A DNA stretch of 64,000 nt from positions 14,380 to 78,379 of the forward strand of contig JACRPU010000021.1 of the NCBI GenBank assembly GCA_016223025.1, in the 5' to 3' direction. The notes under the pieces were generated by a model. The model had not been told where the DNA came from. It ran no database searches and worked only from the letters and a program-made list of their open reading frames with translations. Origin of the DNA: Nitrosomonadales bacterium (GTDB lineage Bacteria > Pseudomonadota > Gammaproteobacteria > Burkholderiales > Gallionellaceae). Positions 17,285 through 55,176 of the stretch are shown piece after piece. The translations under genes were made by a program, and so were the position numbers. Positions within the stretch are counted from its first letter, which is position 1. The number at the start of each line of letters is the position of its first letter.

Positions 17285-18241
17285 TCAACTGCCTTCCGGC
17301 GCAATCCACGATCGGCCGGTCGCCCGCAACCCCTGATCGAGCGAGAACGGTGGATGCCAATTCAGTTCGCGGCGGATCTTGCCGTCATCCACCTGCAACG
17401 AATCCAGCAAGCGCCCCATTTGTTGGGATTTCCCGGCCAGTTTTCCGGCAAGCCGCAGCAAGGCGGCAGGGCAAGGGAACAGGCGCGAAGGAACGCCCAT
17501 TCCGCCTGCCAGTTGCCGCAGCAGGCCTGAAGTCGAGATGTCTTCGCCATCGCATACCAGGTAGGTCTGTCCGGTAGCTGCAGGATGGGTTGCGCAGACG
17601 ATCAGCGCATCCGCCAGGTTGCCCACATAAATCAGGCTGCGGTAGTTGCATACCGAGGCGAAAGGCAAGGGGATGCGCCCGGCAACCACGTTGAGCATCT
17701 GCGCGAAATTACCTTTCACGCCGGGGCCGTACACCAGCGGAGGGCGCACGATAACCACTTCCAACCCGGTTTCCCGTGCAATGCGCCGCAATTCCTGCTC
17801 GGCTTCCCGCTTTGAGACGGCATAGGGGTCCTGCGGGGCAGGCGGGTCGGCCTCGGAGAATTTTTGCCCATTACGGGTTGCTTCGCCGTTCACCTTGATC
17901 GAGCTGACGTAGACCAACCGCTTCACGCCGGCACGCGCCGCCTGACGCGCGAGGTTTATCGTGCCATGCAGATTGACCTCGAGAAACTCTGCCAACGGGT
18001 CGGCGGCGGTATCGCTCATCACATGCACGCGGGCGGCGAGATGGATCACCGCGCCCACGCCGTGCAATGCAGTTGCCCAGTCCGTCGCACCGTCAATCCG
18101 ACCGACGGCCACCTGTTCGGTTTTACCGGTTGGCCCATCGGCGGCACGCACAGCCGCACGGACGGACTGCCCCCGCCGGAGCAGTTCGGCGCAGAGCGGT
18201 TTGCCGACAAAACCGCCGGGCCCGGTAACCAGATATTTCAT
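17285..18241 (-). CDS. NAD-dependent sugar-nucleotide epimerase/dehydratase (SDR family)
   Basis: The internal ATG gives MKYLVTGPGGFVGKPL (Rossmann GxxGxxG). YAVSK catalytic motif present. Confidence 0.8.
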   Translation of the reverse strand: MKYLVTGPGGFVGKPLCAELLRRGQSVRAAVRAADGPTGKTEQVAVGRIDGATDWATALHGVGAVIHLAARVHVMSDTAADPLAEFLEVNLHGTINLARQAARAGVKRLVYVSSIKVNGEATRNGQKFSEADPPAPQDPYAVSKREAEQELRRIARETGLEVVIVRPPLVYGPGVKGNFAQMLNVVAGRIPLPFASVCNYRSLIYVGNLADALIVCATHPAATGQTYLVCDGEDISTSGLLRQLAGGMGVPSRLFPCPAALLRLAGKLAGKSQQMGRLLDSLQVDDGKIRRELNWHPPFSLDQGLRATGRSWIAPEGS

Positions 18242-18498
18242 GTTTGTTCCGAAGCCCTTTGCATATTGCGTACTCCACGGCATTCGGCCACCTGCTCCAC
18301 GATGATCCGACCGGGTCAGTCGGAGCGAAGCGACGCAAGATTTTCAGGTTAAGTTGTTTGGTCGCCGCCTGTCAATTTTCCCATTTCTTTACGCATCAAT
18401 TTGCCGGTCAAATTGATCCGGTAGCTGATCGCGTTGGTGAGGTAAGCCCGGCATGCCGCTTCAACCCGGCTGTTATGTCGCGCGGTTTGCGGGGGCGT

Positions 18499-18649
18499 GC
18501 AGGCATGGCGAGTTTCATTTAGCCGCAAGCTCGAAACTTCGCTTCGCTCGTTTGGCCGCAAGCTCGAAACTTCGCTTCGCTCGTTTGGCCGCAAGCTCGA
18601 AACTTCGCTTCGCTCGTTTTCAGGGGTGGCTACTTTGCCATGCCCGTTA
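18499..18649 (+). mobile_element. Family B element, hairpin half only, loop expanded by a tandem repeat
   Basis: GGCATGGCGAGTTTCAT ... GGGGTGGCTACTTTGCCATGCCCGTTA. The terminal TTA is the complement of the dsrM TAA stop. Confidence 0.7.
18518..18616. repeat. Tandem repeat, 3 x 33 bp
   Basis: TTT(A/G)GCCGCAAGCTCGAAACTTCGCTTCGCTCG repeated three times head to tail. Confidence 0.95.
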
Positions 18650-19372
18650 TTCTCCCGTTTCCAGTTTGGCCGCCCACGCTGCCAGATGGCGCTTTTCGCG
18701 CGGGTTGTCGGCCTGGTTGCGGGAGGGCGAGAAGAACACCCCCGGCGCGTGCAGCAGCTTGCTGAAAGGGAAAATAACCAGCAGCAGCGCGACCAGCAAA
18801 AGGTGCAGATAGAGCGCGAAGTCGGAAGGCAGCGTCTGGAAATCGAAGCGCATGAGGCCGAGAATGAAGGCCTTGGCGCCGATGACATCGGTGTGGAAAA
18901 CAAACGCCATCAGCGCGCCGGAAAGAGCAATGAGAAGCAGCAGCACCAGCATCAGATGATCTGACGGGGTCGAAATGTAGCGGATGCGCTCGACAAAAAA
19001 ACGCCGCGCCAGCAGCCCGGCAAGCGCGAGAACCATGACCGGCGAGGCATAAAGGCCGAACGGCTGAGCAAGCGCAACCCAGAGCCAGACCGGTTCGGTA
19101 AAGTAGCGCAGATGCCGTATCAGAACCAGCACCAGGCTCAAGTGGAAAAGCCAGCCCAGCGCCCATGTCCAGAGGTTGGATTTGAACAGGCTTTCAAAAA
19201 ACACCACTTCCCTGCACATGCGCAATACGACGCCGCCGCCGGTGACGGGCGCCGGGGTGGTCGGGATTTTCAGCGGCGCCGGCGTGCGCGCAAAATCATA
19301 AATCTTGTACCCCACTCCCAGCACCAGTACCAGGAATGCGAGGTAGAACAAAATGGCGAAGAGCAAGCTCAT
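18647..19372 (-). CDS. dsrM: NarI-like dihaem membrane subunit, read as DsrM
   Basis: 241 aa with 5-6 TM segments and conserved His, positioned immediately after dsrC in a dsrABEFHC array. Confidence 0.7.
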   Translation of the reverse strand: MSLLFAILFYLAFLVLVLGVGYKIYDFARTPAPLKIPTTPAPVTGGGVVLRMCREVVFFESLFKSNLWTWALGWLFHLSLVLVLIRHLRYFTEPVWLWVALAQPFGLYASPVMVLALAGLLARRFFVERIRYISTPSDHLMLVLLLLIALSGALMAFVFHTDVIGAKAFILGLMRFDFQTLPSDFALYLHLLLVALLLVIFPFSKLLHAPGVFFSPSRNQADNPREKRHLAAWAAKLETGE

Positions 19373-19493: not shown

Positions 19494-19829
19494 TCAGATG
19501 CAGCCGGTCGGTTTGGGCAGCCCCGCAATCTTGCATGCCTGCTTCCCCGGCCCGTAGGGAAACAGCTCGTAGAGGTACTGGCTGTTGCCTTTGTCCGGCC
19601 CGAATTTCTTGCCGATAGCCTTGGTCAGCACGCGGACCGCCGGGGCGATCTGATATTCTTCATAGTACTCGCGCAGAAAGTTGACCACTTCCCAGTGGTT
19701 GTCGGTCATGTTCAGGCTTTCCTGCTGCGCTATGAAATTGGCGACATCGGTGTTCCAGTCGGCGAGATTGATGAGGTAACCTTCCTCGTCGGTTTCATAG
19801 GATTTACCGCTTACTTCGATGCTGGCCAT
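19494..19829 (-). CDS. dsrC: DsrC sulfur carrier, both C-terminal cysteines present
   Basis: 111 aa. C-terminus PGKQACKIAGLPKPTGCI carries the two conserved Cys. Confidence 0.92.
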   Translation of the reverse strand: MASIEVSGKSYETDEEGYLINLADWNTDVANFIAQQESLNMTDNHWEVVNFLREYYEEYQIAPAVRVLTKAIGKKFGPDKGNSQYLYELFPYGPGKQACKIAGLPKPTGCI

Positions 19830-19860: not shown

Positions 19861-20157
19861 TCAAAGCCAGGATTGGCAGTTTTTATTGGCGGCGACGAGA
19901 TCAACAAAACCGCCGTAATCTACTTTCGCAACTCCTTCGATGATGCGATCGGCAAGCCCGCGCGCTTCGAGGTCGGGCAGCAGGATATGTATCTTTAACC
20001 GGCTCATCGCTTCGCGCACTTTGCCCTCCATCGCGTTGCCTTTTGTTGCGGCATAAACCGCGTCTTCGATAAGCAGGATGTCGCCTGATGCGGCGACGCG
20101 CAGGCAGGCATCGAGCGAGTTGTTACCCAGCGGCGACTTGTTGATGATGTGCAGCAT
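19861..20157 (-). CDS. dsrH: DsrH (TusB-like)
   Basis: 98 aa. MLHIINKSP... DsrH/TusB pattern and position in the dsrEFH set. Confidence 0.85.
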   Translation of the reverse strand: MLHIINKSPLGNNSLDACLRVAASGDILLIEDAVYAATKGNAMEGKVREAMSRLKIHILLPDLEARGLADRIIEGVAKVDYGGFVDLVAANKNCQSWL

Positions 20158-20198
20158 TTTGATTCCTTACTTTTGTAGAGCTACTGAAACCCTTGGTC

Positions 20199-20268
20199 CG
20201 TCATTCCGGCGAAAGCCGGAATCCGGTGCTTTTGATCGAATGGACACCGGCCTTCGCCGGTGTGACGA
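20199..20268. repeat. Double-hairpin repeat, family C
   Basis: CGTCATTCCGGCGAAAGCCGGAATCCGGTG ... TGGACACCGGCCTTCGCCGGTGTGACGAC. A second copy is at 58073-58140. Confidence 0.8.
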
Positions 20269-20279
20269 CCATGTTCCTC

Positions 20280-20401
20280 TAACGGGCATGGCGAATAGCC
20301 ACCCCTGATTATGAAACTCGCCAAGCCCGTTTCCCTCACCCCAACCCTCTCCCGCTGGCGGGAGAGGGGGCGAACGAACCGCTGCGCGAGTTTCACGTTA
20401 A
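20280..20401 (-). mobile_element. Family B element, full copy 2 (reverse orientation) between dsrF and dsrH
   Basis: Its reverse complement aligns end to end with 15265-15381, with a variant central hairpin CTCTCCCGCTGGCGGGAGAG. The terminal TTAA contains the dsrF stop. Confidence 0.8.
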
Positions 20402-20763
20402 AAGCTCAGCACCACATCCTGCTCATCCATGAGCGCGCCCATTTCCCTGCTGCCCAGGACGGTCACATCCACCAGCAGGTCTTCTTCGGTCAGGCCGCGC
20501 GCGTCGAGCGATTCCTTTTCGACGTAGAGTTTTTCGACATCGTAACCATCCAGCGCGCGGTAGGTGGGGGAAAAATTCTTGGTTTCTATCCCCTTTGTCT
20601 GCTGGCCTTTCTTCAACTGATACACGCCGTCGTCAAGAAATGCCAGCGACACGTCCTGATCGAAAGCGGCGGTGATGAGCACCACCTCCAGCGATTCCAG
20701 CGCGTAAATCGTGCCGTAGGGCGCCTTGCGGTTGACGAACAGGAATTTTTTGACTTCGTTCAT
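20398..20763 (-). CDS. dsrF: DsrF (TusC-like)
   Basis: 121 aa, DsrE/F fold pattern, second gene of dsrEFH. Confidence 0.85.
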   Translation of the reverse strand: MNEVKKFLFVNRKAPYGTIYALESLEVVLITAAFDQDVSLAFLDDGVYQLKKGQQTKGIETKNFSPTYRALDGYDVEKLYVEKESLDARGLTEEDLLVDVTVLGSREMGALMDEQDVVLSF

Positions 20764-20771
20764 ATGTTTCC

Positions 20772-21131
20772 TCAGTCGCCGAATACCACTACGCGGTCGG
20801 TCTGGATGCCGGCCTCGACCAGTTGCCCGAGACCGGAAATGCGGAACCCGTGCGCCAGGTTCTCGTCCTGGATGCCGCGCCGCAGGGCTGCCGCGACGCA
20901 GACCACGAGGTCAATCTTGTGCTCTTCGGCCAGCTTGCTCCAGCGGATCACGATGTGGCGGTCATCCTGCGGCGGCTCAGTCAGCCGCGTGGCGTTGTTG
21001 ACGCCGTCGTGGTAGAAAAAGACGCGCCAGATTTCGTGCCCCTTTTCGACTGCGGCCTTGCAGAACAGATAGGCCGAGTCGCTTGCCTGGTGCTGGTAGG
21101 GACCCTCGTTGACGACGATGCCAAATTTCAT
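20772..21131 (-). CDS. dsrE: DsrE (TusD-like)
   Basis: 119 aa. MKFGIVVNEGPYQHQAS... with the conserved Cys in DLVVCVAAALRRG. Confidence 0.85.
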   Translation of the reverse strand: MKFGIVVNEGPYQHQASDSAYLFCKAAVEKGHEIWRVFFYHDGVNNATRLTEPPQDDRHIVIRWSKLAEEHKIDLVVCVAAALRRGIQDENLAHGFRISGLGQLVEAGIQTDRVVVFGD

Positions 21132-21146: not shown

Positions 21147-22223
21147 TCAGAAACGGATATGCGTAGAAGCGTTCAGGTTGGCGCGCGAGCCTCTCCAGTC
21201 ATCAATCAGGTACTTGGTGAAAGGCAGGCCGGTCTTCTCGAAAAAGCGCGGCCAGCCGATCCGCTCGATCCAGTCGGACATGCGCTCCCACGGCCTCGCG
21301 TCGGCCTTGTACGTGTGCAGGATTTTCTTTACCACCGCGCTGACTTCTGGCCAGCGCGGGGGGTTGTTGGGCAGCCCGGACGCGACCATTTTCATGAAGG
21401 TCGGTTTGCTGCGCGCATTGGAATTTTTTCCGCCGACCCAGATAGCCAGCTTCGAGTATTCCGGGTCATTGATCTGCATCGGCGGGCAGGGCGGGTAGCA
21501 GGCCCCGCAACACATGCATTTGCTCTCGTCAATTTCCAGCGAGGGTTTGCCGTTCACCATCGCCGGGCGGATCGCCGCCACCGGGCAACGCGCCACCACC
21601 GAGGGGCGCTCGCAAATGTTGGCGACCAGGTCGTGGTTGATTTTTGGCGGTTTGGTGTGCTGGATGATGACGGCGAGATCGGCCTGTCCGCCGCAGTTGA
21701 TTTCGCAGCAGGAGGTGGAAAGGCGCACCCGGTTGGGCATCTCTTCGTGCCGGAACTCTTCGATGAGTTCGTCCATCAGCGCCTTGACCGCGCCCGATGC
21801 ATCGGTGCCCGGAATGTCGCAATGCAGCCAGCCCTGGGTGTGGGCGATCATGGACACCGAATTGCCGGTGCCTCCCACCGGGAAACCGCTCGCTTCGAGT
21901 TCGGCGACCAGGGGGGCGACCTTGGACGCGCTCGACACCATGAATTCGATGTTCGAGCGGATGGTGAAGCGGACATGACCTTCCGCGAATTTGTCGGCGA
22001 TGTCGCACAGCTTGCGGATGGTATGGACATCCATTTGCCGCTGCGTGCCGGCGCGCACCGACCATACTTCGTCGCCGCCGTGCGAGACATGGTGCAGCAC
22101 GCCGGGGCGGGGCCGGTCATGGTATTTCCAGTTGCCGTAGTTTTTCGCCAGCAGCGGATGCAGGTATGGCTTGTTGTCGGGAACGCCGCTTTCGGTGGGG
22201 CGGCGCATTTGCGGTTGGGCCAT
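21147..22223 (-). CDS. dsrB: Dissimilatory sulfite reductase beta subunit (reverse/oxidative-type context)
   Basis: Start at ATG 22223 (MAQPQMRRPTESG...), GGGAGAA RBS 14 nt after the dsrA stop. Siroheme/Fe-S Cys clusters (CCEINCGG, CPVAAI, CMCCGACYPPCP). Confidence 0.93.
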   Translation of the reverse strand: MAQPQMRRPTESGVPDNKPYLHPLLAKNYGNWKYHDRPRPGVLHHVSHGGDEVWSVRAGTQRQMDVHTIRKLCDIADKFAEGHVRFTIRSNIEFMVSSASKVAPLVAELEASGFPVGGTGNSVSMIAHTQGWLHCDIPGTDASGAVKALMDELIEEFRHEEMPNRVRLSTSCCEINCGGQADLAVIIQHTKPPKINHDLVANICERPSVVARCPVAAIRPAMVNGKPSLEIDESKCMCCGACYPPCPPMQINDPEYSKLAIWVGGKNSNARSKPTFMKMVASGLPNNPPRWPEVSAVVKKILHTYKADARPWERMSDWIERIGWPRFFEKTGLPFTKYLIDDWRGSRANLNASTHIRF

Positions 22224-22236
22224 TTCGTTCTCCCGG

Positions 22237-23544
22237 TTATCTGTTTTGCGCGCCAGCCTGTTTCCTGGCGTTGATTTTTGCCACTTCCTCGTCCCATCCG
22301 TCGGTGCGGACATAGGGGTTCATGCGCGGAGAGGAAACCATGTTCGGATCCACTTCGAGTTCCATCGCCTCAAGGAAATTGGCGAGACCGATGCGCTCGA
22401 TCATTTCCCCGGTGCGCTCGTGCTCCAGCGCGTTCTCGGCAAAGAAATCAATGGTGCGTTGCGCGAGGTCCACCAGCTTCTCCAGGTCTCCGTCGCTTTC
22501 GAGTTTCATGAAGGGAACCACCACCGTCCCCATCAGGTCGCCGATCTTGAGCGTCCGTTTGCCGCCCATCAGGATGGTGACCCCCTTGTCCCTGCCGGGA
22601 GCCAGCGCGCCGGTCATGACGTTGATGCAATGCATGCAGCGCACGCAATCCCTGTTGTCAATTTCGATGGCGTGGGTATCGTTGATCGCCACGCTGGAGA
22701 TGTGCTCGCCCTTCCTGACATCCTTGAGTTGTTTGAGCAGGAATGTCCTGGTCGGACAGCGGGCAACCACATCGTTCACCAGTTCGTCCATGCCGTGTTT
22801 CGCGAACCATTTTCTGGCCAGCGCCTCATCGGTGCGCATGTTGTCGCGCCAGGTGCCGATGACCGCCATGTCGGCGCGCTGGATCGAGTTCATGCAGTCG
22901 TTCGGGCAACCGGAAAACTTGAACTTGAATTTGTAGGGCAGGGAAGGGCGATGCATATCGTCGAGGAAGGTGTTCACTACGGCGCGGTGCGCCTTCGCTT
23001 CATCGAAGCAGGACTGCTCGCAGCGGGCTGCGCCGACGCAGGACATCGAGGTGCGCACCGCCGGGCCAGCGCCGCCCAGATCGAACCCCATTTCGTTGAG
23101 TTCATCGAACGCCTTTTGCACGTTTTCGGTCGTTGCGCCCTGGAACATGATGTCGCCGGATTGGCCGTGAAACGCGATCAACCCGGAACCGTGTTTCTCC
23201 CAGATGTCGCACATTTTGCGCAATACCCCGGTGGTGTAGTGCATACCCGCAGGGGGCATGATGCGCAGAGTGTGGAATTCCGCCGCATCCTTGAAAACGG
23301 GTTCGCCGTTTTCATCCTTCAGTTCGGTGAAGCGCGGGATGACGCCGCCGCCGTAACCGAACACGCCCACCGTGCCGCCCTTCCAGTAGCCCTTCCTGGT
23401 GCGGTACGAGGTTTCGAGTTGGCCGAGCAGGTCAACCGCCATGTTGTTGTCCTGCGCCAGGCGTTTGATCCCGGTGACAAAACTCGGCCACGGACCGCTT
23501 TCGAGCTGGTCCAGATTCGGTGTGTCATGCAGTTTCTTGGCCAT
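22237..23544 (-). CDS. dsrA: Dissimilatory sulfite reductase alpha subunit
   Basis: 435 aa. GYWKGGTVGVFGYGGGVIPRF, SCVGAARCEQSC, FSGCPNDC and CVRCMHCINV motifs. Confidence 0.95.
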   Translation of the reverse strand: MAKKLHDTPNLDQLESGPWPSFVTGIKRLAQDNNMAVDLLGQLETSYRTRKGYWKGGTVGVFGYGGGVIPRFTELKDENGEPVFKDAAEFHTLRIMPPAGMHYTTGVLRKMCDIWEKHGSGLIAFHGQSGDIMFQGATTENVQKAFDELNEMGFDLGGAGPAVRTSMSCVGAARCEQSCFDEAKAHRAVVNTFLDDMHRPSLPYKFKFKFSGCPNDCMNSIQRADMAVIGTWRDNMRTDEALARKWFAKHGMDELVNDVVARCPTRTFLLKQLKDVRKGEHISSVAINDTHAIEIDNRDCVRCMHCINVMTGALAPGRDKGVTILMGGKRTLKIGDLMGTVVVPFMKLESDGDLEKLVDLAQRTIDFFAENALEHERTGEMIERIGLANFLEAMELEVDPNMVSSPRMNPYVRTDGWDEEVAKINARKQAGAQNR

Positions 23545-23818
23545 GAATCTTCCTTTCCGTCATGATGCGGCACAAGCTGAAAACTCCTCCGCGCGAAGCA
23601 ATAGTGACGCATCTGTCAAGCACATTAAATAGCCCTGATGGGGGGGTGTGCCAATAATCCCTTGGTGTTACCTTGTCGCTCCCCCGTGATGGCTATAGAC
23701 GCTTTTGCCGGAATTTTGCTCAATATCGCTTGCAAAACAAGGCAAAACACAATGTTGGTGAAACCGGTATCGCTGCGGGGTAGTATATAAAAATTCCGGA
23801 AAAACAGATGGAGAAAAA

Positions 23819-24043
23819 ATGGCGCATGTCAGCGAGCTGGAGAAATTCAGGGTGCCGCTGGGCAACCAGCAAATCGAGTTGCAGCAGGTTGACCATGCCG
23901 GAGGCGGAATGAGCCTGCTGCGCATCCGCATACGCGAAGGGCGGCGCTTCACCATTTTTGATATTGACCCCGCGACAGCGCGGCGCTGGAGCGACGCGAT
24001 GCGGCACTGGGCGGACGCGCAGGAGGCGAAGGCAGTTGAATGA
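23819..24043 (+). CDS. Small hypothetical protein (74 aa), first gene of the operon divergent from dsrA
   Basis: GGAGA RBS upstream, tight spacing to the next gene. No recognisable motif. Confidence 0.5.
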   Translation: MAHVSELEKFRVPLGNQQIELQQVDHAGGGMSLLRIRIREGRRFTIFDIDPATARRWSDAMRHWADAQEAKAVE

Positions 24044-24053
24044 AGCGCCTGAC

Positions 24054-24629
24054 ATGACGGATGTCGCCTTCGGCTTGCGGGGCGAGCTCGTTCCGGCGGG
24101 CTATGCCTTCGCGTTGTGGGATGAAGTGGCGCGTTGCCTGCCGTGGCTGGAAGCCGACGAGTTTGCCGGGATAGTCCCCTTGCGCGCTGCGGCAAGCGGG
24201 GGCAACATGCTGTTGCCGCGTCGCGCGAAACTGGTGTTGCGCCTGAGATCGCAGTTTGCGCAGCGCGCAAGGTCGCTGACCGGGCGGGAGCTGGATGTTG
24301 GCGGCAGCATGTTGCGGGTGGGCGAAGCCGAGGAACGGTCGCTGAAACCGTACCCGACGCTCCACGCGCAACTGGTGGAGAGCGCCAGCGAAGAGGGGGC
24401 CTTTCTTGCCGGCATGGCCGCCCGCCTGCAAGAAATGGAGGTTGCCTGCAAGCTGGTCTGCGGCAAGCGGCTTGCGGTGGCGGGAGAAAAGCAGCAGGTT
24501 GCCGGATACAGCCTCGTGCTGCACGACCTCAAGCCGGAAGGCTCCTTGCAGGTGCAGCGGATGGGGCTGGGCGGCAGCCGCCGTTTCGGCTGCGGAATTT
24601 TTGTGCCATACAAAACCATTGTAACGTGA
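24054..24629 (+). CDS. Cas6/Cmx6-like RAMP-fold protein, orphan (no CRISPR or other cas genes in window)
   Basis: ATG at 24054. N-terminus MTDVAFGLRGELVPAGYAFALWDEVARCLPWL and C-terminal glycine-rich loop GLGGSRRFGCGIFVP match my recollection of the subtype MYXAN Cas6 (Cmx6) family pattern. Confidence 0.5.
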   Translation: MTDVAFGLRGELVPAGYAFALWDEVARCLPWLEADEFAGIVPLRAAASGGNMLLPRRAKLVLRLRSQFAQRARSLTGRELDVGGSMLRVGEAEERSLKPYPTLHAQLVESASEEGAFLAGMAARLQEMEVACKLVCGKRLAVAGEKQQVAGYSLVLHDLKPEGSLQVQRMGLGGSRRFGCGIFVPYKTIVT

Positions 24630-24661: not shown

Positions 24662-24991
24662 ATGTCATATGTCATTGCAGGCAGGGAACTGGAAACCGAC
24701 CCGGAGGGATATTTGCTGGAACCGGACTACGGCGATGAAATTGCCGGTGTGATCGCGGCGGCGGAGGGGATCGAACTGACTCCCGCGCACTGGCAGGTCA
24801 TCAGTTATTTGCGCGACCAATATCGCGAACACGGCCACACGCCGAACTTTCGCAATATGCTGAAGGGCGTCCAGGAATTCTGGCCGGAAGCGGACAGCAA
24901 GGCGCTTTATGATCTTTTTCCGCTGGGCCCGGCAAAGCAGGGCGCAAAAGTTGCCGGGTTAACACAGCCCCTCGGAAAAGGCGGATACTGA
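24662..24991 (+). CDS. DsrC/TusE-family protein lacking both conserved cysteines
   Basis: AGGAGG RBS. Colinear with DsrC (ETDPEGYL..., HWQVISYLRDQY..., LYDLFPLGPAKQGAKVAGLTQPLGKGGY). The protein has no Cys at all: Gly replaces the internal Cys, and no Cys is present in the slightly longer C-terminal tail. Confidence 0.82.
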   Translation: MSYVIAGRELETDPEGYLLEPDYGDEIAGVIAAAEGIELTPAHWQVISYLRDQYREHGHTPNFRNMLKGVQEFWPEADSKALYDLFPLGPAKQGAKVAGLTQPLGKGGY

Positions 24992-25026: not shown

Positions 25027-25512
25027 ATGAGCACACACGACATTCACGCCAATATGGTTCTGGACATGAAGGGGTTGACCTGTCCCGCGCCGCTGCTGGG
25101 CGCCAAGAAACTGGTGGACGATTTGCGGGCGGGGCAGATATTGCTGCTGATATCCGACTGCAAGGGAACCCAGGACGACCTTTTCGCATGGGCCCGGCAA
25201 ACGGGCAACCAGGTGCTGAAAACCGCGCAGATGCCGGATGGCGGCACCGGCTATTACATCATGAAGGGCAAGGACAAGACGCTCCAGGCCCATGTGACGC
25301 TGGATATACGCGGGGTCGCCTGTCCGGGGCCGATTGTCGAGGCAAAGAAATTGCTGAACGGCATGAAGCCCGGAGAAGTGTTGAAACTCGTTAGCAACTG
25401 CCCCGGAACCCGTGACGACATCACCAGTTGGGCAGCCACGACCGGAATGAAGCTGCTCGATACGGTCAAGGTTGCCGCAGACGATTACGAGTTCTACATT
25501 CAAAAGGCGTGA
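25027..25512 (+). CDS. Tandem double TusA/SirA-domain sulfur carrier
   Basis: 161 aa with two TusA modules, each carrying the CPxP motif (MKGLTCPAPLL and IRGVACPGPIV). Confidence 0.85.
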   Translation: MSTHDIHANMVLDMKGLTCPAPLLGAKKLVDDLRAGQILLLISDCKGTQDDLFAWARQTGNQVLKTAQMPDGGTGYYIMKGKDKTLQAHVTLDIRGVACPGPIVEAKKLLNGMKPGEVLKLVSNCPGTRDDITSWAATTGMKLLDTVKVAADDYEFYIQKA

Positions 25513-25538: not shown

Positions 25539-26114
25539 ATGCGTGTCAAAAGCAAATGGTTCAAGAGCGGGCGGGTGAAAACGCCGCAGGAAATCGCGGG
25601 TGCGATGGCATTCATCGTCTGGCGCATCGGCCTGAATGCGCTCAAAAACACGCGCAAGGCCGATTTTGATGTCGCTGTCGGGCCGCAGTATTTTGCATTT
25701 CTTTCGGAGTTTCTGATTTTTCTGGTGCAGGTTGCGGACCGGATTGCCTATGGCCGGTTCGGCGCCGAAGACCGCACCTCCTTTACCACGGCGCTTGCCG
25801 TGCGGCTTGCCGAAATACTGGCCGAGAACCGGAGCGAATTGCTCGGCGGCACAACCGCCGAACACGAGAGCAGCTTCATCGCGCAGCTAAACCGGCGCGC
25901 CGGGGAATACGCGGAATTCGAATATGGCAGCGGCGGCCCGGAATTCTCGTTCATCCGTCATCTCGGTTACTGCATGCTCGACCTTGTCGCCGAGAAGGAT
26001 AAAAGCTGGGTGGTTGACCAGATGATGACCTTCGAGGCGCCGGAGGCCGTGGCAACGGCGGAAAAAGCCTTGCGGGGCTTGCTCGAAGATGCCCCCGCGC
26101 AACATGCCGCTTGA
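25539..26114 (+). CDS. Hypothetical protein (191 aa)
   Basis: The ATG at 25539 follows the double-TusA stop. Mostly helical-looking, with no motif I recognise. Confidence 0.5.
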   Translation: MRVKSKWFKSGRVKTPQEIAGAMAFIVWRIGLNALKNTRKADFDVAVGPQYFAFLSEFLIFLVQVADRIAYGRFGAEDRTSFTTALAVRLAEILAENRSELLGGTTAEHESSFIAQLNRRAGEYAEFEYGSGGPEFSFIRHLGYCMLDLVAEKDKSWVVDQMMTFEAPEAVATAEKALRGLLEDAPAQHAA

Positions 26115-26135: not shown

Positions 26136-27068
26136 ATGATGATACCCCTCGCGCAAACATGCTCCAGCCCGGGCCCGTTCGGTTTCGGCGATGAAACCGC
26201 ATACCGGCGCTGGCGCGAGCGGAAACTGGAACAGGCTCCGCAGACGGTTGCCGAACTGATCGTCGAGGTCGGCGATGCGGAAAACCTGTCCGCCGCAGAA
26301 CATGCCGCGCTCCTGGCGCGCTGCCGCCGCGCCAACATGGCCATCTACGCCAACCGGAAGCGCGGTGCCGGCAAGGATGTCGCACGCATCGTCGGGCGGC
26401 AGTTCGGGCTGGAAAACCTGGATGCCAACTGGCTTGCCGACGAGGATGGGGTTTCGCAGATAACGGTATGCGGCGGCAGCGCGCGCCAGGATTTTATCCC
26501 CTACACCAACCGCCCGATCAAGTGGCATACCGACGGCTATTACAACCCGCCGGAACGGCAGATCCGCGCGATGGTGCTGCATTGCGCCCGGAGCGCGGCG
26601 GAAGGTGGTGAGAACTGCCTGATGGATCACGAAATGGCTTATCTGCTGCTGCGCGACGCCAACCCGGATTTGGCCCGCGCCCTGTTTGCGCCGGACGCGA
26701 TGACGATTCCGGAGCGCGTGGACGAAGGCGGCGTGGCGCGCGCCGCCCAGACCGGCCCGGTTTTTTCCATCGAAAAAAATGGCGCGCTGCACATGCGCTA
26801 TACCGCCAGAACCCGCAGCATAGAATGGAAGCGGGACGAAATGACGCTGGCGGCAACCTCCCTGCTGGAAAAACTGCTGGCTTCAGATTCGCCCCGCATT
26901 TACCGCGCCCGCCTTGAGCCCGGCATGGGGTTGCTGTGCAACAATGTGCTGCACGATCGCGCGGGCTTCCGCGACGACGCGGATCATCCCCGGTTGCTGC
27001 AACGCGCGCGGTTCTACGACCGCATAATGGCCCCGCGCAGCCAGCCCCGCGCAGCCGGCCTTGACTGA
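26136..27068 (+). CDS. TauD/TfdA-like Fe(II)/2-oxoglutarate dioxygenase superfamily protein
   Basis: 310 aa. WHTDGYY (HxD facial triad) and a distal His in CNNVLHDR. Overall length fits the family. Confidence 0.6.
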   Translation: MMIPLAQTCSSPGPFGFGDETAYRRWRERKLEQAPQTVAELIVEVGDAENLSAAEHAALLARCRRANMAIYANRKRGAGKDVARIVGRQFGLENLDANWLADEDGVSQITVCGGSARQDFIPYTNRPIKWHTDGYYNPPERQIRAMVLHCARSAAEGGENCLMDHEMAYLLLRDANPDLARALFAPDAMTIPERVDEGGVARAAQTGPVFSIEKNGALHMRYTARTRSIEWKRDEMTLAATSLLEKLLASDSPRIYRARLEPGMGLLCNNVLHDRAGFRDDADHPRLLQRARFYDRIMAPRSQPRAAGLD

Positions 27069-31011: not shown

Positions 31012-31180
31012 TAACGGGCATGTCGAGTAGCCACCCCTGATTATGAAACTCGCCATGCCCGTTTCCCTCACCCGTGCGTGGCTGTTGCCGCTTCAGCGGC
31101 TTTACAGCCACGGCCTGCCCCTTGCGGGTGCAACCCTCCCCCGCTGGCGGGAGAGGGGGCAAACGAATCGCTGCGCGAGA
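31012..31180 (-). mobile_element. Family B element, copy 3 with an extra nested hairpin insertion and an altered end
   Basis: TAACGGGCATGTCGAGTAGCCACCCCTGATTATGAAACTCGCCATGCCCGTTTCCCTCACCC, plus an inserted CGTGGCTGT...ACAGCCACG hairpin, then CCCGCTGGCGGGAGAGGGGGC...GCTGCGCGAG. Confidence 0.7.
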
Positions 31181-39217: not shown

Positions 39218-40033
39218 TCAGAAAGAAAACGGCGCACTTTTTCCCAGCATGATAACCCAGTCGAGCGGGCGCAACACCGGGCGGTGGCGGAACATGTCGA
39301 ACCGCGCGCTTTCCAGCTTGTTGAGTATGCGGTTGCCGCCCGCGATGATGAGGCGCATTTCCAGCCCGATACGCCCGGTGAGTATGCTGCCGAGCGGCGC
39401 CCCGCTCTTCATCATGTCGCGCGCGCGCTGCACCTGGAACTGCATCAGCTCGCGCCAGGCCGCATCCGCGCGGCCTTCGGCAATGCGCCTTTCGGTCACG
39501 CCGAAGCGCGCCATTTCATCCTGCGGCAGGTAGATGCGCCCGATGGCGTAATCCCTGGCCACGTCCTGCCAGAAGTTGATGAGCTGCAAGCCGGTGCAGA
39601 TGGCGTCGGAATACGCCACGTTTGCTGGTGTGGCTTCTTCGTACAGATGCAGCAGCAACCGGCCCACCGGGTTGGCCGAGCGGCGGCAGTAATCCTGTAC
39701 CTCGTCAAAATTGGCGTAGCGTTTTTTGACTACATCCTGCGAGAAGGCATCGAGCAGGTCGTGGAAAAGTTGCAGCGGTAACTGGTGTTGCGCAACGACC
39801 CCGGCTATATCGTGGAACAAGGGAGTTTGCGGCGTTTCACCAGATGCAACGCGCTCCAGCTCGGCGCGAAAGCCATCCAGTTTCGCCAGGCGCTCTTCGT
39901 TGGAAATGTCGCCCTCATCGGCGAAGTCGTCGGCCTGGCGCGCAAAACGGTAGATAGTTTCCACCGGTCGCCGCAGGCGCCTGGGCAGCAGGATGGAGGC
40001 GACCGGGAAGTTTTCGTAATGGTCAACGGCCAT
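39218..40033 (-). CDS. hpnC: Hydroxysqualene synthase HpnC
   Basis: 271 aa. MAVDHYENFPVAS...IYRFARQADDFADEG. Confidence 0.85.
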   Translation of the reverse strand: MAVDHYENFPVASILLPRRLRRPVETIYRFARQADDFADEGDISNEERLAKLDGFRAELERVASGETPQTPLFHDIAGVVAQHQLPLQLFHDLLDAFSQDVVKKRYANFDEVQDYCRRSANPVGRLLLHLYEEATPANVAYSDAICTGLQLINFWQDVARDYAIGRIYLPQDEMARFGVTERRIAEGRADAAWRELMQFQVQRARDMMKSGAPLGSILTGRIGLEMRLIIAGGNRILNKLESARFDMFRHRPVLRPLDWVIMLGKSAPFSF

Positions 40034-40709
40034 TATTGGCGGCTAGCGAGCGTAGCTTGCTCGTCCATTCGCGGAAGTGTACGCACTCAGCTTCCATAAC
40101 GGGTAATGTTATGCGCTCTGCACCGAGTGGCCCATGGCGTGTTTTTTGATACTTTGGCCGCAACAAGCTTTCAAGCCTGCGCGACGGTTTGGTTTCAAGG
40201 TTGTCGTTGATATGTTCTGGTGTTTGGAAAGAGTTGCGGACAGCAGAAAGCTTGAGAAGATAGCTATGCCATGTTGGTTCAACGTCACATAAAGCTGCCA
40301 CATTTGAAAAAAGCAACCCTTCGAATTCATATGGCTGAATGTGTGGAATAAAGCGCTCAGGTCGGCAACCGGCATATTCAACAATTGCTTGGTGAAGTGC
40401 GCTTTCCAAGCAGGCTGTTCGCGTGTAGATGTCTGATTTATCTTTCGCATCCAGATAAGCAGGAAAGTTGGTCTCTAGTGCATAGAGATCAAGGAATGTG
40501 CTCAACACTGTGTTGGGATTTTGTCGCAATGTGTTGCGTGCATTGAATTTGAGCCGGTCAAAACTGACCGCCCCACCGTATGCATCCCGTGATGTTTTGA
40601 GCATTTGCGGCTTTACAAATACTTGCGCAGGCCGCAGCGATGGAGCAACAACACGCTTTATGAATTGTTCTTCGGTAGGTCCTTCAGCAAAGACAATGAC
40701 ATCTGCCAT
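40023..40709 (-). CDS. DUF4276-like protein (Toprim-like N-terminal motif)
   Basis: The ATG at 40709 is 1 nt after the ATPase stop. MADVIVFAEGPTEEQFIKRV resembles the hhhhEG-TE start of DUF4276 and OLD-type Toprim domains. Its last 11 nt overlap the hpnC start. Low GC. Confidence 0.65.
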   Translation of the reverse strand: MADVIVFAEGPTEEQFIKRVVAPSLRPAQVFVKPQMLKTSRDAYGGAVSFDRLKFNARNTLRQNPNTVLSTFLDLYALETNFPAYLDAKDKSDIYTRTACLESALHQAIVEYAGCRPERFIPHIQPYEFEGLLFSNVAALCDVEPTWHSYLLKLSAVRNSFQTPEHINDNLETKPSRRLESLLRPKYQKTRHGPLGAERITLPVMEAECVHFREWTSKLRSLAANNGR

Positions 40710-40710
40710 G

Positions 40711-41793
40711 CTACGGCCTCCCGCCCAAGACATTGCTTTTCCATAGCTCCCCCATGGAATACTGCTCCAGCCAGCCAGCCAGTTCATTTTGGGTAAAGCG
40801 TTTGAAGGTTGATGCACCATCTTGTTGATCTACCACAATCACGTCCTCTGGCGACAGCTCATTAATAAGCTCAACAGATTGCGTGGATACGATGAGCTGG
40901 CGATTCTCGGACACCTTCTTAAAGATTTCGGCGAGCACCGTGATGGCGTAGGGGTGTAGCCCTAACTCCGGCTCGTCAATGAGAATGGTGTGGGGCAAGA
41001 GGGCTGTTGGTTGTAGTAGCAAAGTTGCCAGGCAAATAAAGCGCAACGTACCGTCGGATAGCATGTGCGCTTTGAAGGGGATGTCGGGCTTACCTTTTTG
41101 TGTCCATTCCAATGCTATGAATTCAGTATCATCAGAACGATGCACGAAATCATCGAAAAATGGGGCGACCAGATGGATGGCATCAACAATACGTTGGTAT
41201 TCCTTAGGGTATTTAGCCTTCAGCATCCGCAGGTATGGAGCTAAATTCGCCGCATCTGGCAGTAAGCGCAGATTGAGATTGGAAGCCTGAGGTTGCTTGA
41301 CCTTGGCGTTCTCGCTGGTGTCATGGAAATGGTATACACGCCAATTGCTTACTGATGGGCGCACATAAGGCGAGTATTTGTCTTTTGCTTCTTTAAGCTT
41401 TGATTCGTCATGCCCCACCCCAAGTGTTGCACTTGGAGTGGTATCGAAAAATATGCCTCTAAACCAACTGATTTCTCTTTCAAATATTAATCGGTTGTCG
41501 TTGGTTGGTATGAGATCAAATTTGTAACCGTTGCGATCAAAATAAAATTCGGCATGTAATTTGTCTGTGGTTTGTCGTCCGAAATGTAGCAGCGCATCCG
41601 GCCCCCCTTGTTTTTGGATAAACACCTGCAATTGCTGCTCGTACATTTCGTTCAGCAGACGGAATAGGCCTATAAAATTACTTTTCCCTGCACCGTTGGC
41701 ACCAATCAACACATTGAGATCAGTTAATTTGAAATCTCGCAGCTCACGGATTGACTTATAGCCAGTTATTGTTAAGGAGAGAACGCCTGACAT
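40711..41793 (-). CDS. ABC/AAA_15-like ATPase (SMC-like, OLD/PARIS-type ATPase architecture)
   Basis: ATG at 41793 (AAGGAAA RBS). Walker A GANGAGKSN, signature-like LSDGTLRF, Walker B ILIDEPELGLHP. Low GC. Confidence 0.8.
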   Translation of the reverse strand: MSGVLSLTITGYKSIRELRDFKLTDLNVLIGANGAGKSNFIGLFRLLNEMYEQQLQVFIQKQGGPDALLHFGRQTTDKLHAEFYFDRNGYKFDLIPTNDNRLIFEREISWFRGIFFDTTPSATLGVGHDESKLKEAKDKYSPYVRPSVSNWRVYHFHDTSENAKVKQPQASNLNLRLLPDAANLAPYLRMLKAKYPKEYQRIVDAIHLVAPFFDDFVHRSDDTEFIALEWTQKGKPDIPFKAHMLSDGTLRFICLATLLLQPTALLPHTILIDEPELGLHPYAITVLAEIFKKVSENRQLIVSTQSVELINELSPEDVIVVDQQDGASTFKRFTQNELAGWLEQYSMGELWKSNVLGGRP

Positions 41794-41806
41794 GTTTTTC
41801 CTTACG

Positions 41807-42715
41807 CTAACAAAGAATGTCGCTGCGATGCAGCATAAACACAAATTCATCCCCCGCGCTGACCTCCAGCCAGGTGAACGGCAGCTCGGGGCAGGCGGCT
41901 TCCAGCGCGGCGCGGTTGTGGCCGACTTCCACGATCAGCACGCCATCTGGCGTCAGGTGTGCGGCGGCAAGCCTGAGAATCTCGCGCGTGGCATCCAGCC
42001 CGTCGGCCCCGCTGCCCAGCGCAAGCAAAGGCTCGTGCCGGTATTCCTGCGGCAGCGCGGACAGGGATTGCGCGTCCACATAAGGCGGGTTGCTTATGAT
42101 GATGTCATATTGCCTGCCACCCAGCCTGGCGAACAGATCGGATTCAATCAGGTGAACGCGGTCTTCCAGACCATAGTCGTCCACGTTGCGCTGCGCTACA
42201 TCCAGCGCGGCTGGGGATATATCCACCGCATCCACCTCGGCATGGGGGAAGGCGTGCGCGGCAAGGATGGCGAGGCAGCCGCTGCCGGTGCATAAATCCA
42301 GCACCCGCGTTACGTTTTCCGGGTTGTCCAGCCACGGAGCGAGTTGTTCGCGCAACAGTTCGGCGATGAAGGAGCGCGGCACGATCACGCGCTCGTCCAC
42401 ATAAAAGCGGAAATCGCCCAGCCAGGCTTCGTGCGTCAAATAGGCTGCCGGTATGCGGTTCCCGACCCGTTTTTCGATGATATTCAGCACTTCATCCAGC
42501 TCGGCTCGCGTGAGTCTGGCATCGAGGAAGGGGTCCAGGCGATCCGGCGGCAGGTGCAGGGTGTGCAGGATGAGGTAGGCGGCCTCATCGTAGGCCGTTT
42601 CGCTGCCGTGGCCGAAAAACAGCCCGTTCCGGTTGAACCGGCTGACCGCGAAGCGCAGGCAATCCCGCACCGTTACCAGCGCGTCGCGCGCGTCGGCAAG
42701 AAAGCTGGCATCCAT
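41807..42715 (-). CDS. prmB: Ribosomal protein L3 N5-glutamine methyltransferase
   Basis: 302 aa. VLDLCTGSGCLAI and ISNPPYV motifs with a PrmB-type N-terminus. Confidence 0.88.
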   Translation of the reverse strand: MDASFLADARDALVTVRDCLRFAVSRFNRNGLFFGHGSETAYDEAAYLILHTLHLPPDRLDPFLDARLTRAELDEVLNIIEKRVGNRIPAAYLTHEAWLGDFRFYVDERVIVPRSFIAELLREQLAPWLDNPENVTRVLDLCTGSGCLAILAAHAFPHAEVDAVDISPAALDVAQRNVDDYGLEDRVHLIESDLFARLGGRQYDIIISNPPYVDAQSLSALPQEYRHEPLLALGSGADGLDATREILRLAAAHLTPDGVLIVEVGHNRAALEAACPELPFTWLEVSAGDEFVFMLHRSDILC

Positions 42716-51896: not shown

Positions 51897-53053
51897 TAGC
51901 GCATATTTGAAAGTAGCCTATCGATTTTCTTCACCCTCAAATTGAGGATGTTTGAAGCATCGAACACATTAAGTAATCCAGTGGAGTAGGCCTCCAAAAC
52001 TGTATTAAACATGGGACGCCCCAAGTCTATGCGCATCAATATTTCTCTGGGTATCTTTACTTCTACTTTCTGGGTTGTGTGAGTTCTCTCATTTGCATTT
52101 TTCCGTAGTTCCAGAAGATGAGCCAGTTCTTGTTGGTTAATTAAATTAATTCTCTTTAGACATACGGCGGCTGTCGAATAGGTGACCTTAAAGATTTTTG
52201 AAAGGGCCTCCATTTTTTCAACCAAGTTCATACCCTGATAGTCAGCAAAATTAATCTTTTCTGACGGGACCAATATCTCGGCTGCGATTCGGTTGCAGCT
52301 TACTTCCAGTTGAGTTTCGGGTGAATTGATTGCGTCAATGATTTGAGCGCGAGCGTCATTTATTGCAGATTGGCCGATAAGCAAATGAGCATACTCATGT
52401 AGTAGTGTGAACAATCTTCGCTCATTAAAGTACCCCCCTCTCTTCAGAAGGATGATCGGACAGGACTCGTAAAAAATCGCGGCACCTATGACACCTGAAG
52501 CATCAGGGATGTATTGAGACTCGTAAACAAGGACGCCATCATTTTCAATTTTTTCTTTCCAGAATGCATACGCCTCATCGTAAGTTAAAGCGTCAATTTC
52601 CGCATCTAGTATGCCGAGTCGTTTTCGTACGATACTTCCAATATTTTTTTCGAGCTCAGCCACGGGGAGTAATTGGAATAGTTTTATTGGGACATCAAGT
52701 CTAATTGCTAAATCAATGAATACTTCCCTGCGATCACGACACTTTTTAATTTCAAGGTTTAATCTGTAATGGTCGGCACCAGCCAAGCCCGGTTCAATAC
52801 GGAAATCCGGCATTGGGGTGTACGTTTTTTCGCGAGGTGGTTTTGATAAATAGAAATAACCAAAAGGGAAATCAAATTTCTCCGCTGCTTTTCGGAGCTG
52901 ATTCAACGTCAAGGGCTTCTCACCAGATTCTGCCGCTTGAAGTGTTTCGACAGACACTCCTATAGCTTCGGCTGCTTGCTCAAGCGTATAGCCGACCTCT
53001 TCACGTGCCCAAATAAGCATCTTTGAGTTATTGCTTGTTCTGATGGTGGACAT
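51896..53053 (-). CDS. XRE-HTH fused to ImmA/IrrE (COG2856) zinc metallopeptidase
   Basis: N-terminal HTH (GYTLEQAAEAIGVSVETLQAAESG) and HEYAHLL HExxH motif. Low GC. Confidence 0.8.
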   Translation of the reverse strand: MSTIRTSNNSKMLIWAREEVGYTLEQAAEAIGVSVETLQAAESGEKPLTLNQLRKAAEKFDFPFGYFYLSKPPREKTYTPMPDFRIEPGLAGADHYRLNLEIKKCRDRREVFIDLAIRLDVPIKLFQLLPVAELEKNIGSIVRKRLGILDAEIDALTYDEAYAFWKEKIENDGVLVYESQYIPDASGVIGAAIFYESCPIILLKRGGYFNERRLFTLLHEYAHLLIGQSAINDARAQIIDAINSPETQLEVSCNRIAAEILVPSEKINFADYQGMNLVEKMEALSKIFKVTYSTAAVCLKRINLINQQELAHLLELRKNANERTHTTQKVEVKIPREILMRIDLGRPMFNTVLEAYSTGLLNVFDASNILNLRVKKIDRLLSNMR

Positions 53054-53076
53054 CGTGCGTAATTAACTTGATTTAT

Positions 53077-53175
53077 CTATAGCAGCAAAAGAGCAAAAGG
53101 GGCCAGGTTCGGGTTAAATGCATTCAGCCAACTGGCGAAGCGCCGGGGAAGTTGCGCATCGACCAGGAATTTCAT
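53077..53175 (-). pseudogene. Remnant (about the first 17 codons conserved) of a DUF5615/Mut7-C-type toxin gene
   Basis: The ATG overlaps the DUF433 stop (ATGA). MKFLVDAQLPRRFASWL matches the usual DUF5615 start, then diverges and stops after 32 codons, exactly where the GC content drops. Confidence 0.5.
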
Positions 53176-53396
53176 GCTGCCAGGCGTTCAAGCCGTTTTA
53201 CATGGGTCAGTCGCGCGGCGTAGGAAAGCGCCGCCAGGATGTCTTCGCGTTCCAGGTCTTCATAGTCTTTCAGGATTTCTTCTGTGGTCATGCCGCTGGC
53301 CAGCCACTCCAGCACGTTTTCCACCGGATAGCGCAGGCCGCGTATGCAGGGTTTGCCGTGGCATACGCCGGGATCGATAGTGATGCGGTCGCTCAT
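53172..53396 (-). CDS. DUF433 antitoxin-like protein
   Basis: 74 aa. ITIDPGVCHGKPCIRGLRYPVENVLEWLASGMTTEEIL is the DUF433 signature. Confidence 0.8.
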   Translation of the reverse strand: MSDRITIDPGVCHGKPCIRGLRYPVENVLEWLASGMTTEEILKDYEDLEREDILAALSYAARLTHVKRLERLAA

Positions 53397-53459
53397 TGCT
53401 GCCTCCTGCTCGTAAATTTACGGAAGAATCTTACACCAGCTTGTATCTGAGGGAGTGGC

Positions 53460-53503: not shown

Positions 53504-53511
53504 TGCAGAGG

Positions 53512-55176
<1,665 letters not shown>

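Follow-up and report, generated by a model that had tools for sequence, protein, structure and literature searches.

What is a gene of the Cas6 family doing in an operon of sulfur-carrier genes, with no CRISPR array and no other cas gene beside it? The question is raised by a gene at 24036..24629 (+) of a 64,000-nucleotide stretch of a Nitrosomonadales bacterium genome (assembly GCA_016223025.1, contig JACRPU010000021.1, positions 14,380 to 78,379; hereafter the window). Its product, which we call Cas6L, is a double RNA-recognition-motif (RRM) protein of the Cmx6/MYXAN type. A preliminary description of this DNA had proposed an exapted Cas6/Cmx6, outside any CRISPR locus and within a sulfur-carrier operon. 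Profile hidden Markov models (HMMs), predicted fold, clade structure, synteny and the genome of a cultured relative, Sideroxydans lithotrophicus ES-1, support that proposal, and we are nearly certain that Cas6L is a non-CRISPR exaptation of Cas6, from the Cmx6/type I-B MYXAN lineage, dedicated to the dsr genes of the reverse dissimilatory sulfite reductase (rDsr) system.

Cas6L and the absence of a CRISPR locus

The open reading frame (ORF) at 24054-24629 (+) is present, and its translation agrees with the sequence quoted in the preliminary description. It encodes 191 residues from the ATG at 24054 and 197 from a TTG at 24036. The TTG is probably the true start, because GGAGG at 24021-24025 precedes it, because it overlaps the stop codon of the upstream DUF6967 gene, and because 197 residues is the length of the protein-database gene call (P0001). 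Against Pfam PF09559 (Cas6), Cas6L scores 167.9 bits (E = 3.4e-49; gathering score 26.7) over residues 3-187 of 191, and against NCBIfam TIGR02807 (cas6_cmx6, an 'equivalog' model) it scores 137.7 bits, the cut-off being 98.85; the Cas6/Cmx6-like identity first suggested for 24054-24629 is borne out by these scores, each above its cut-off. A protein search returned 595 close homologs at 90% clustering, and an exhaustive search for the whole family found 1,091 representatives at 50% clustering, 543 of them with E <= 1e-10.

An AlphaFold2 model built from 71 homologs (mean predicted local distance difference test, pLDDT, 94.2) consists of two beta-alpha-beta-beta-alpha-beta units, that is, two RRM (ferredoxin-like) domains. 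Its top Foldseek match in the PDB is 8fcu_B, the Cas6 subunit of a type I-B CRISPR-associated transposon (CAST) Cascade (template-modelling score, TM, 0.90, normalised to the query; root-mean-square deviation 1.8 Å; 22% identity), and every one of the 35 matches at E <= 0.001 is a Cas6, a Cse3/Cas6e or another RAMP entry. At sequence level, the same type I-B Cascade Cas6 chain is the only PDB match (E = 1.2e-10). The C-terminal glycine-rich loop before the last strand is retained, with G171, G173, R176, G179, C180 and G181 conserved. The model predicts a structurally intact Cas6 of double-RRM fold, and its agreement with a solved type I-B Cas6 upholds the match to the MYXAN Cas6 family that had been suggested from the termini of the protein; by sequence and fold, Cas6L is a member of the Cas6/Cmx6 family.

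Tandem Repeats Finder, a direct-repeat search and a spaced-repeat scan found no CRISPR-like array in the 64 kb of the window; the spaced-repeat scan recovered the array of a positive control, locus L080. A concealed array was accordingly rejected, all three independent scans being negative. We also compared all 86 ORFs of at least 200 amino acids in the six frames of the window with PADLOC and Pfam, taking the best 25 families of each (PADLOC matches extending to E ~1e-25). Among the matches listed, Cas6 is the sole Cas family: no Cas5/Cas7/Cas8 effector set is among them, and further cas genes in the window were dismissed on the same grounds. For the repeats, and for cas genes among those matches, the earlier claim of a 64-kb stretch without array or other cas gene holds. 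Three copies of a 28-nt direct repeat do occur at 60374-60488 (71-89% identity, spacing 30 and 57 nt); they have neither the length nor the regularity of a CRISPR array, and probably lie inside a coding region.

The same absence extends to related loci. We collected 160, comprising 80 from species-representative genomes and 80 from metagenomes, the latter deliberately centred on the family member nearest the CRISPR-linked branch, and 159 of them have neither an array nor another cas gene. The sole real array is that of L080, from a Nitrososphaerota metagenome-assembled genome, whose protein is 31% identical to Cas6L. L080 is also the only locus without dsr genes, and it holds a complete type I-B/MYXAN system, with Cas6, Cas3, Cas8, Cas7, Cas5, Cas4-Cas1, Cas2 and a 6-repeat array.

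Might Cas6L serve an array elsewhere in its genome? A Sideroxydans-type query recovers the ortholog of S. lithotrophicus on a 3,003,656-bp contig, and in strain ES-1 (CP001965.1:1696002-1714604) the whole six-gene module to which Cas6L belongs lies between the dsr and sox clusters. The complete ES-1 genome is reported to have zero CRISPR-related genes and no CRISPR sequences (Emerson et al. 2013, PMC3770913). At least one carrier of the module therefore has no array for Cas6L to serve, which argues against an array elsewhere in the genome and carries the absence seen in the window, in this cultured relative, to the level of a complete genome. The exact ES-1 Cas6L protein occurs in 15 further public-run assemblies, on contigs of up to 20-50 kb, among them the Logan assemblies of SRR15376039 (17.5 kb) and SRR15376032 (14.1 kb). 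By their numbers the runs may belong to the ES-1 RNA-sequencing project of 2021 (PRJNA753090); if they are RNA sequencing, the module is transcribed.

The operon and its dsr-linked clade

The window holds all six genes of the module in consensus order. The DUF6967 gene at 23819..24043 (+; 74 residues; PF22295, E = 2.5e-31) stands directly upstream of Cas6L. Downstream follow a DsrC/TusE-family gene without the two C-terminal cysteines at 24662..24991 (+; PF04358, E = 2.8e-31), a tandem TusA sulfur-carrier gene at 25027..25512 (+; PF01206 in two stretches, E = 1.8e-37; CPxP in both domains), the gene of a conserved protein without family match, hyp191, a core member of the module, at 25539..26114 (+), and lastly a TauD/TfdA-family Fe(II)/2-oxoglutarate dioxygenase-like gene at 26136..27068 (+; PF02668, E = 9.4e-15). 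Across a divergent intergenic control region at 23545..23818, the dsr genes run on the minus strand: dsrA (22237-23544), which starts 274 nt from the DUF6967 gene, then dsrB (21147-22313), dsrE (20772-21131), dsrF (20398-20763), dsrH (19861-20157), dsrC (19494-19829) and dsrM (18647-19372). They were identified from ORFs, from tblastn orthology and synteny over the 160 loci, and from the Pfam labels of their ES-1 orthologs. With DsrC-like and tandem TusA genes downstream of Cas6L and dsrABEFHCM divergent from it, the sulfur-carrier context described for this gene stands. Nucleotide homology to the closest relative, L001, stops at 27013, in the TauD-like gene, and at 18647, where dsrM ends.

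This arrangement recurs across the loci with enough flanking sequence to be scored by tblastn with the window's 13 proteins. A divergent dsrA lies within 3.5 kb in 107 of 108, and DUF6967 is immediately upstream of Cas6L in 134 of 140; downstream, hyp191 is present in 106 of 108, the DsrC-like gene in 101/108, the TauD-like gene in 98/108 and TusA in 70/108. Record titles name Gallionellaceae, Gallionella, Sideroxydans, Sideroxyarcus and Nitrosomonadales, and also Hydrogenophilales, Hydrogenophilus, Parasulfuritortus, Burkholderiales and Ideonella, among others. In well over a hundred lineages of betaproteobacteria, Cas6L is fixed in a small operon that adjoins the reverse dsr genes. The preliminary description of a stand-alone Cas6 in a sulfur-carrier operon was right about the non-CRISPR setting and fell short only in scope, the module being widespread and conserved and no one-off. 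A metagenome scan confirmed at least 590 of 600 candidate stretches, and the module is therefore abundant in the environment.

In two divergent loci, L076 (CAWKAE010000011.1) and L147 (a TARA scaffold), the module is rearranged: TauD lies upstream of Cas6L, DUF6967 has no match, and the DsrA proteins are only ~61% identical. The former is labelled 'uncultured Halobacteria archaeon' yet carries bacterial-type dsrABEFHCM, and is possibly mis-binned.

The partners of Cas6L have features of their own. In ES-1 the DUF6967 stop codon overlaps the Cas6L start by 4 nt, and the stop/start overlap seen both there and in the window suggests that the two genes are translationally coupled. The DsrC-like protein lacks both C-terminal cysteines in 134/140 loci; the window copy, whose tail reads ...GLTQPLGKGGY, has no cysteine at all, whereas genuine DsrC, encoded in the divergent operon, has the C-terminus ACKIAGLPKPTGCI. 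Both CPxP motifs of the tandem TusA are present in 89/89 orthologs. Searches of Pfam, NCBIfam, PHROG and PDB profiles returned no match for hyp191, and for DUF6967 a function by sequence was sought in NCBIfam, PHROGs and PDB profiles with no result, its Pfam match being DUF6967 itself. The ES-1 neighbourhood also includes a glutaredoxin, a DsrE-like protein, a YeeE-like transporter and sox genes. The module genes are absent from the available supplements of two Sideroxydans transcriptome and proteome studies.

Do the dsr-linked proteins stand apart from the Cas6 proteins of CRISPR systems? We compared 157 dsr-linked proteins of verified context with five CRISPR-linked ones, likewise verified: L080, 8fcj_B and three cas6 genes from cyanobacterial plasmids, each the first gene of a complete I-MYXAN operon. 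The split between the groups was recovered in 100 of 100 bootstrap neighbour-joining trees; identity between the groups is 22-41% (median 29%), and within the dsr group the median is 40%. The separate, non-CRISPR clade of dsr-linked homologs that had been proposed as a check is thus found when the comparison is made with context-verified members. A neighbour-joining tree that took in context-unverified representatives was comb-like and uninformative.

Common to both groups, and invariant or nearly so, are R63, G171, G173, R176, G179, C180, G181, F183 and P185, and the core of the glycine-rich loop, G-x-G-x-x-R-x-x-G-C-G-x-F-x-P, is retained in the dsr clade. Other positions have shifted. Position 17, in the D-H-G-Y motif after strand beta-1, is His in four of the five CRISPR-linked proteins (Asn in 8fcj_B), whereas the 157 dsr-linked proteins have Tyr in 89, His in 57 and Asn in 7, with Tyr in the window protein. 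At position 33, His in four CRISPR-linked proteins and Glu in the fifth give way to Ala, Glu or Gly in the dsr-linked group (Glu in the window); at position 175, in the glycine-rich loop, Lys or Arg in all five gives way mostly to Asp, Glu or Gly (Ser in the window). His41, considered as a further CRISPR-specific residue, was dropped, being variable among the verified CRISPR-linked members. The dsr group has also gained residues: R57, E114 and K187 are each invariant in 157/157, and H157 is found in 147, T102 in 138, R95 in 135 (with Lys in 19 more) and C136 in 129 of the 157. These gained positions are variable in the five CRISPR-linked proteins, where the dsr-type residue occurs only as one Arg57 and one Lys95.

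In Cas6 the catalytic His directly follows beta strand 1 of the N-terminal RRM (Makarova et al. 2011). Position 17 lies at this site, and the window Cas6L therefore likely lacks the catalytic histidine; the conserved histidines are replaced in the window protein (His17 by Tyr, His33 by Glu) and in most Gallionellaceae-type members. We know of no experiment that has mapped the catalytic residues in the Cmx6 subfamily, so that 'nuclease-dead', as used below, is something we infer. By cas and array association and by the conserved histidine, Cas6L is without the defining features of a functional CRISPR Cas6. The ratio of nonsynonymous to synonymous rates (dN/dS) is 0.07-0.30 in five close pairs, always below 1, pointing to a protein that is under purifying selection and still functional. 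With these values Cas6L ranks at or near the top of the cluster, whose dsr genes have 0.01-0.16.

Possible roles of Cas6L

What, then, might this protein do beside the dsr genes? We tentatively favour a role in which a nuclease-dead Cas6L, paired with a PUR-like DUF6967, helps to control the rDsr system at the level of RNA. Cas6L would no longer cut CRISPR RNA and would act as a binding subunit. Made together with DUF6967 by translational coupling, it would join its partner in a small complex with affinity for RNA or some other single-stranded nucleic acid, and this complex would set the expression of rDsr and sulfur-relay genes post-transcriptionally. How the sulfur relay stands would be signalled by TusA and the cysteine-less DsrC-like protein. 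We lean this way because the glycine-rich loop core and R63 are kept, because the partner is PUR-like and apparently coupled, and because dsrR and dsrS are missing from the ES-1 cluster. A more specific version, in which Cas6 was domesticated once into the rDsr system as a sequence- or structure-specific RNA-binding regulator with a PUR-like partner, we regard as doubtful. In those lineages that keep His17, Cas6L might be an RNA-processing enzyme.

Conservation is far stronger in DUF6967 than in Cas6L: across 45 diverse sequences the mean column identity is 63%, and DUF6967 has 1,088 homologs. In its AlphaFold2 model (pLDDT 91.7) four antiparallel strands form a sheet, after which comes a long helix (beta-beta-beta-beta-alpha), and its best folds in the PDB are the Pur-alpha PUR repeats (TM 0.60-0.66 against the query and at most 0.74 on the 62-residue repeat III); Whirly proteins rank much lower (TM ~0.35-0.45). 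PUR and Whirly folds bind single-stranded nucleic acids. Among the PDB fold matches, DUF6967 resembles no Cas protein.

A role of this kind would have a parallel. DsrR, which is IscA-like, and DsrS of Allochromatium vinosum have reportedly been implicated in post-transcriptional control of dsr expression. Like the DUF6967-Cas6L pair, they are small accessory proteins encoded with dsr genes and lying outside the catalytic core, although there is no relation in sequence or fold. The ES-1 dsr cluster is listed as dsrABEFHCMKLJOPN, which includes neither dsrR nor dsrS; from their absence in clusters of this type one may speculate, by functional analogy, that the DUF6967-Cas6L pair could fill a comparable niche.

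A number of observations weigh against RNA-level control. The matches of DUF6967 to PUR repeats are statistically weak (E = 0.2-2), and a profile search of PDB sequences with DUF6967 was empty, giving the likeness no support in sequence; the modelled resemblance is a lead, not a finding. The dsr-linked proteins have a median net charge of 0 and an isoelectric point (pI) of 7.0, as against +6 and 9.5 in the CRISPR branch (six CRISPR-branch sequences, two of them with verified context), and many members of the dsr clade have acidic residues in the glycine-rich loop; the window Cas6L itself has a pI of 9.0, a net charge of +4 and the loop G-S-R-R. The newly conserved E114, H157 and C136 suggest a site for a ligand or for catalysis sooner than a surface for RNA. 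At gathering thresholds, no Rfam family was found in the window, and folding z-scores for six intergenic regions and both leaders in ~45 loci were unremarkable (median -1.2 to +0.3).

The control region between the two operons adds to these points. An alignment of 72 dsrA|DUF6967 intergenic regions from Gallionellaceae-type loci contains a conserved palindrome with the consensus AACCC-N4-GGGTAGT, and ~25 nt beyond it a second conserved block, CCCCnGTAGTAT, which contains GTAGTAT (23660-23672 in the window). Of the 72 regions, 48 carry a palindrome that is perfect over at least 4 bp, and 37 of these have the arms ACCC/GGGT; the median distance is 201 nt to the start of dsrA and 133 nt to that of DUF6967. 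The window version, at 23629-23645, reads AGCCC-TGAT-GGGGGG and forms only 3 base pairs. The arms are almost invariant, so no covariation test is possible. Placed mid-way, the palindrome looks like the DNA operator of a divergent promoter and not like a Cas6-type hairpin, and we rejected it as a hairpin substrate in cis on account of its invariant arms, its operator-like character and its weak pairing in the window. More broadly, Rfam, the palindrome analysis and the folding z-scores gave no repeat-like or conserved hairpin in cis, hence nothing that speaks positively for an RNA target in cis; one in trans may exist. The palindrome and second block are probably the operator of some regulator, possibly the cysteine-less DsrC-like protein: DsrC reportedly binds dsr promoter DNA in A. 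vinosum, which makes its cysteine-less relative a candidate for binding the palindrome. No consensus sigma-70 promoter was found in the window's dsrA|DUF6967 intergenic region.

Much of this evidence can be turned towards a protein adaptor, a reading that we consider unlikely, though seriously to be weighed. The Cas6 fold would here be a scaffold that binds the cysteine-less DsrC-like protein, TusA, DsrEFH or DsrAB, engages no nucleic acid, and aids or gates the passing of persulfide sulfur to rDsrAB. Sulfur-carrier proteins are its partners in the operon, with the CPxP pair of TusA intact in every ortholog, and the ES-1 surroundings supply yet more sulfur and redox genes, from the glutaredoxin to the sox cluster; the clade has lost its net positive charge and its basic loop residue, Rfam and folding disclosed no RNA element, and R57, E114 and K187 are new invariant residues of surface type. 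Yet the loop core, invariant clade-wide, has no known protein-binding role, Cas6L persists although TusA is found in only 70/108 loci, and the coupled DUF6967 resembles, weakly, a nucleic-acid-binding fold. The conserved E114, H157 and C136 could instead form, with C180, a metal, cofactor or catalytic site, and Cas6L, hyp191 and the TauD-like protein would then act together on a low-molecular-weight (organo)sulfur compound in sulfite or sulfur handling. We think it improbable that Cas6L is such an enzyme or small-molecule binder. The three residues are invariant or common in the dsr-linked proteins and all differ from those of the CRISPR-linked ones, hyp191 and TauD may be counted as the most constant downstream partners, and RRM/ferredoxin-like folds bind small ligands in other families; however, C136 is replaced by Pro or Thr in ~13% of members, a dN/dS that is the highest in the cluster would be unusual for a core catalytic subunit, and we know of no enzyme family that combines this fold and motif.

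That Cas6L is a working CRISPR Cas6, serving an array or type I-B system elsewhere and adjacent to dsr by chance, is scarcely credible and already largely refuted. The protein does pass the TIGR02807 'equivalog' cut-off, its fold and glycine-rich loop are intact, and 57 of the 157 dsr-linked members keep His17. Chance adjacency, however, would have to account for dsr synteny in 107/108 loci and many genera; ES-1 has the gene and is reported to be free of CRISPR, genuine I-MYXAN systems have a cas6 of their own at the head of the operon, and the dsr-linked proteins form a separate clade in every bootstrap tree, in which the window protein is without the conserved histidines. If, on the other hand, Cas6 was indeed domesticated into the rDsr system as an RNA-binding regulator with a PUR-like partner, no earlier Cas-derived protein would have had a housekeeping function in bioenergetics, and Cas6L would be nature's counterpart of synthetic biology's 'Cas6 as programmable RNA-binding switch'.

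Related systems, annotation and other features of the window

The nearest known relatives of Cas6L are the type I-B (MYXAN) Cas6/Cmx6 proteins, exemplified by chain B of 8fcj and 8fcu and by the cas6 genes of the Synechocystis PCC 6714 pSYLB, Gloeothece PCC 7424 and S. elongatus UTEX 3055 plasmids, with which it shares PF09559/TIGR02807, the double-RRM fold, the core of the glycine-rich loop and R63. In contrast to these, the dsr-linked Cas6L is never found beside cas3, cas8, cas7, cas5, cas1, cas2 or an array, and stands beside dsr; the window protein lacks His17, His33 and Lys/Arg175, the clade is near-neutral and not basic, and R57, E114 and K187 are new.

Reuse of CRISPR components has been described before. 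The exaptations reviewed by Koonin and Makarova (2022, PMC8730458) are the Streptomyces I-E cas5-6-7-8 module with a STAND NTPase, the haloarchaeal HRAMP systems, and the CASTs. Like Cas6L, these are RAMP proteins kept, and presumably reused, after the loss of arrays, adaptation genes or Cas3; they retain several effector subunits and are read as serving defence or mobile elements, however, whereas Cas6L is a lone Cas protein in a chromosomal locus of energy metabolism, and a search of the text of that review found no lone Cas6 in a metabolic locus. For a single cas family outside CRISPR loci, the solo-Cas4 proteins, Cas4-family nucleases with many members outside CRISPR-cas loci (PMC5704561), offer a precedent. 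Their fold and chemistry (PD-(D/E)xK nuclease) differ from those of Cas6L. We know of no fixed link between solo-Cas4 and one metabolic pathway.

A search of the full-text literature, which included few subscription journals and is provisional to that extent, found no paper linking Cas6/Cmx6, I-MYXAN or DUF6967 to dsr genes or sulfur oxidisers. The divergent operon goes unmentioned in those Sideroxydans papers on dsr genes whose text we searched for Cas6, DsrC, TusA or CRISPR. The exaptation is solid and, it appears, so far unreported.

In public databases the dsr-linked clade goes by the name 'type I-MYXAN CRISPR-associated protein Cas6/Cmx6', as in S. lithotrophicus and Sideroxyarcus emersonii (P0406, P0424). 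This over-annotation is clade-wide because the dsr-linked proteins exceed the TIGR02807 'equivalog' cut-off, and the misleading label leads to false calls of an 'orphan cas gene' in genomes without CRISPR. A clade-specific model, for instance one requiring R57, E114 and K187, would mend it.

The fixation of a lone Cas6 in a chromosomal energy-metabolism locus, across many genera, widens the range over which Cas parts are reused, and the presence of His-containing and His-less lineages in one context constitutes a natural experiment for CRISPR evolution. For sulfur metabolism, the rDsr systems of Gallionellaceae, Sideroxydans and Hydrogenophilales-type organisms have a conserved six-gene accessory operon whose products, including the cysteine-less DsrC and the tandem TusA, are candidates for missing steps of regulation or sulfur delivery. 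The module can be tested in cultured strains such as S. lithotrophicus ES-1.

The dsr operon of the window terminates at dsrM, and no homolog of DsrK or DsrJ and no real DsrL homolog was found anywhere in the window. dsrK follows dsrM in 77 of 82 related loci; it does not in the window, L001, L071, L020 or L053. A near-perfect tandem repeat (33 nt x 3.1) lies at the dsrM break, at 18518-18619, and what follows the break (17285-19372 region) we take, from reading its ORF translation, to be an epimerase-like gene. Between dsrF and dsrH the window has ~240 nt of extra sequence (20160-20401), compared with a spacing of only ~30 nt in L001. REP-like palindromes make up this insert; one of them, CCCTCTCCCGC-TG-GCGGGAGAGGG, is seen again at 31134-31157 (0 chance matches expected).

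Genes of defence type lie elsewhere in the window. HEC-01, a two-gene candidate anti-phage system unrelated to Cas6L, occupies 40026-41850 (-), with the AAA ATPase HEC-01A at 40714-41850 (-; E = 3e-147) and HEC-01B at 40026-40820 (-; E = 3.1e-69). Two adjacent ORFs further on also match defence models, more weakly, that at 53515-55176 (-) the mad3, mad8 and AriA-like ABC-ATPase models (E = 1.4e-55) and that at 51899-53053 (-) RmrA/capP-like models (E ~1e-10); these matches, in 51899-55176, may reflect generic ATPase and peptidase similarity.

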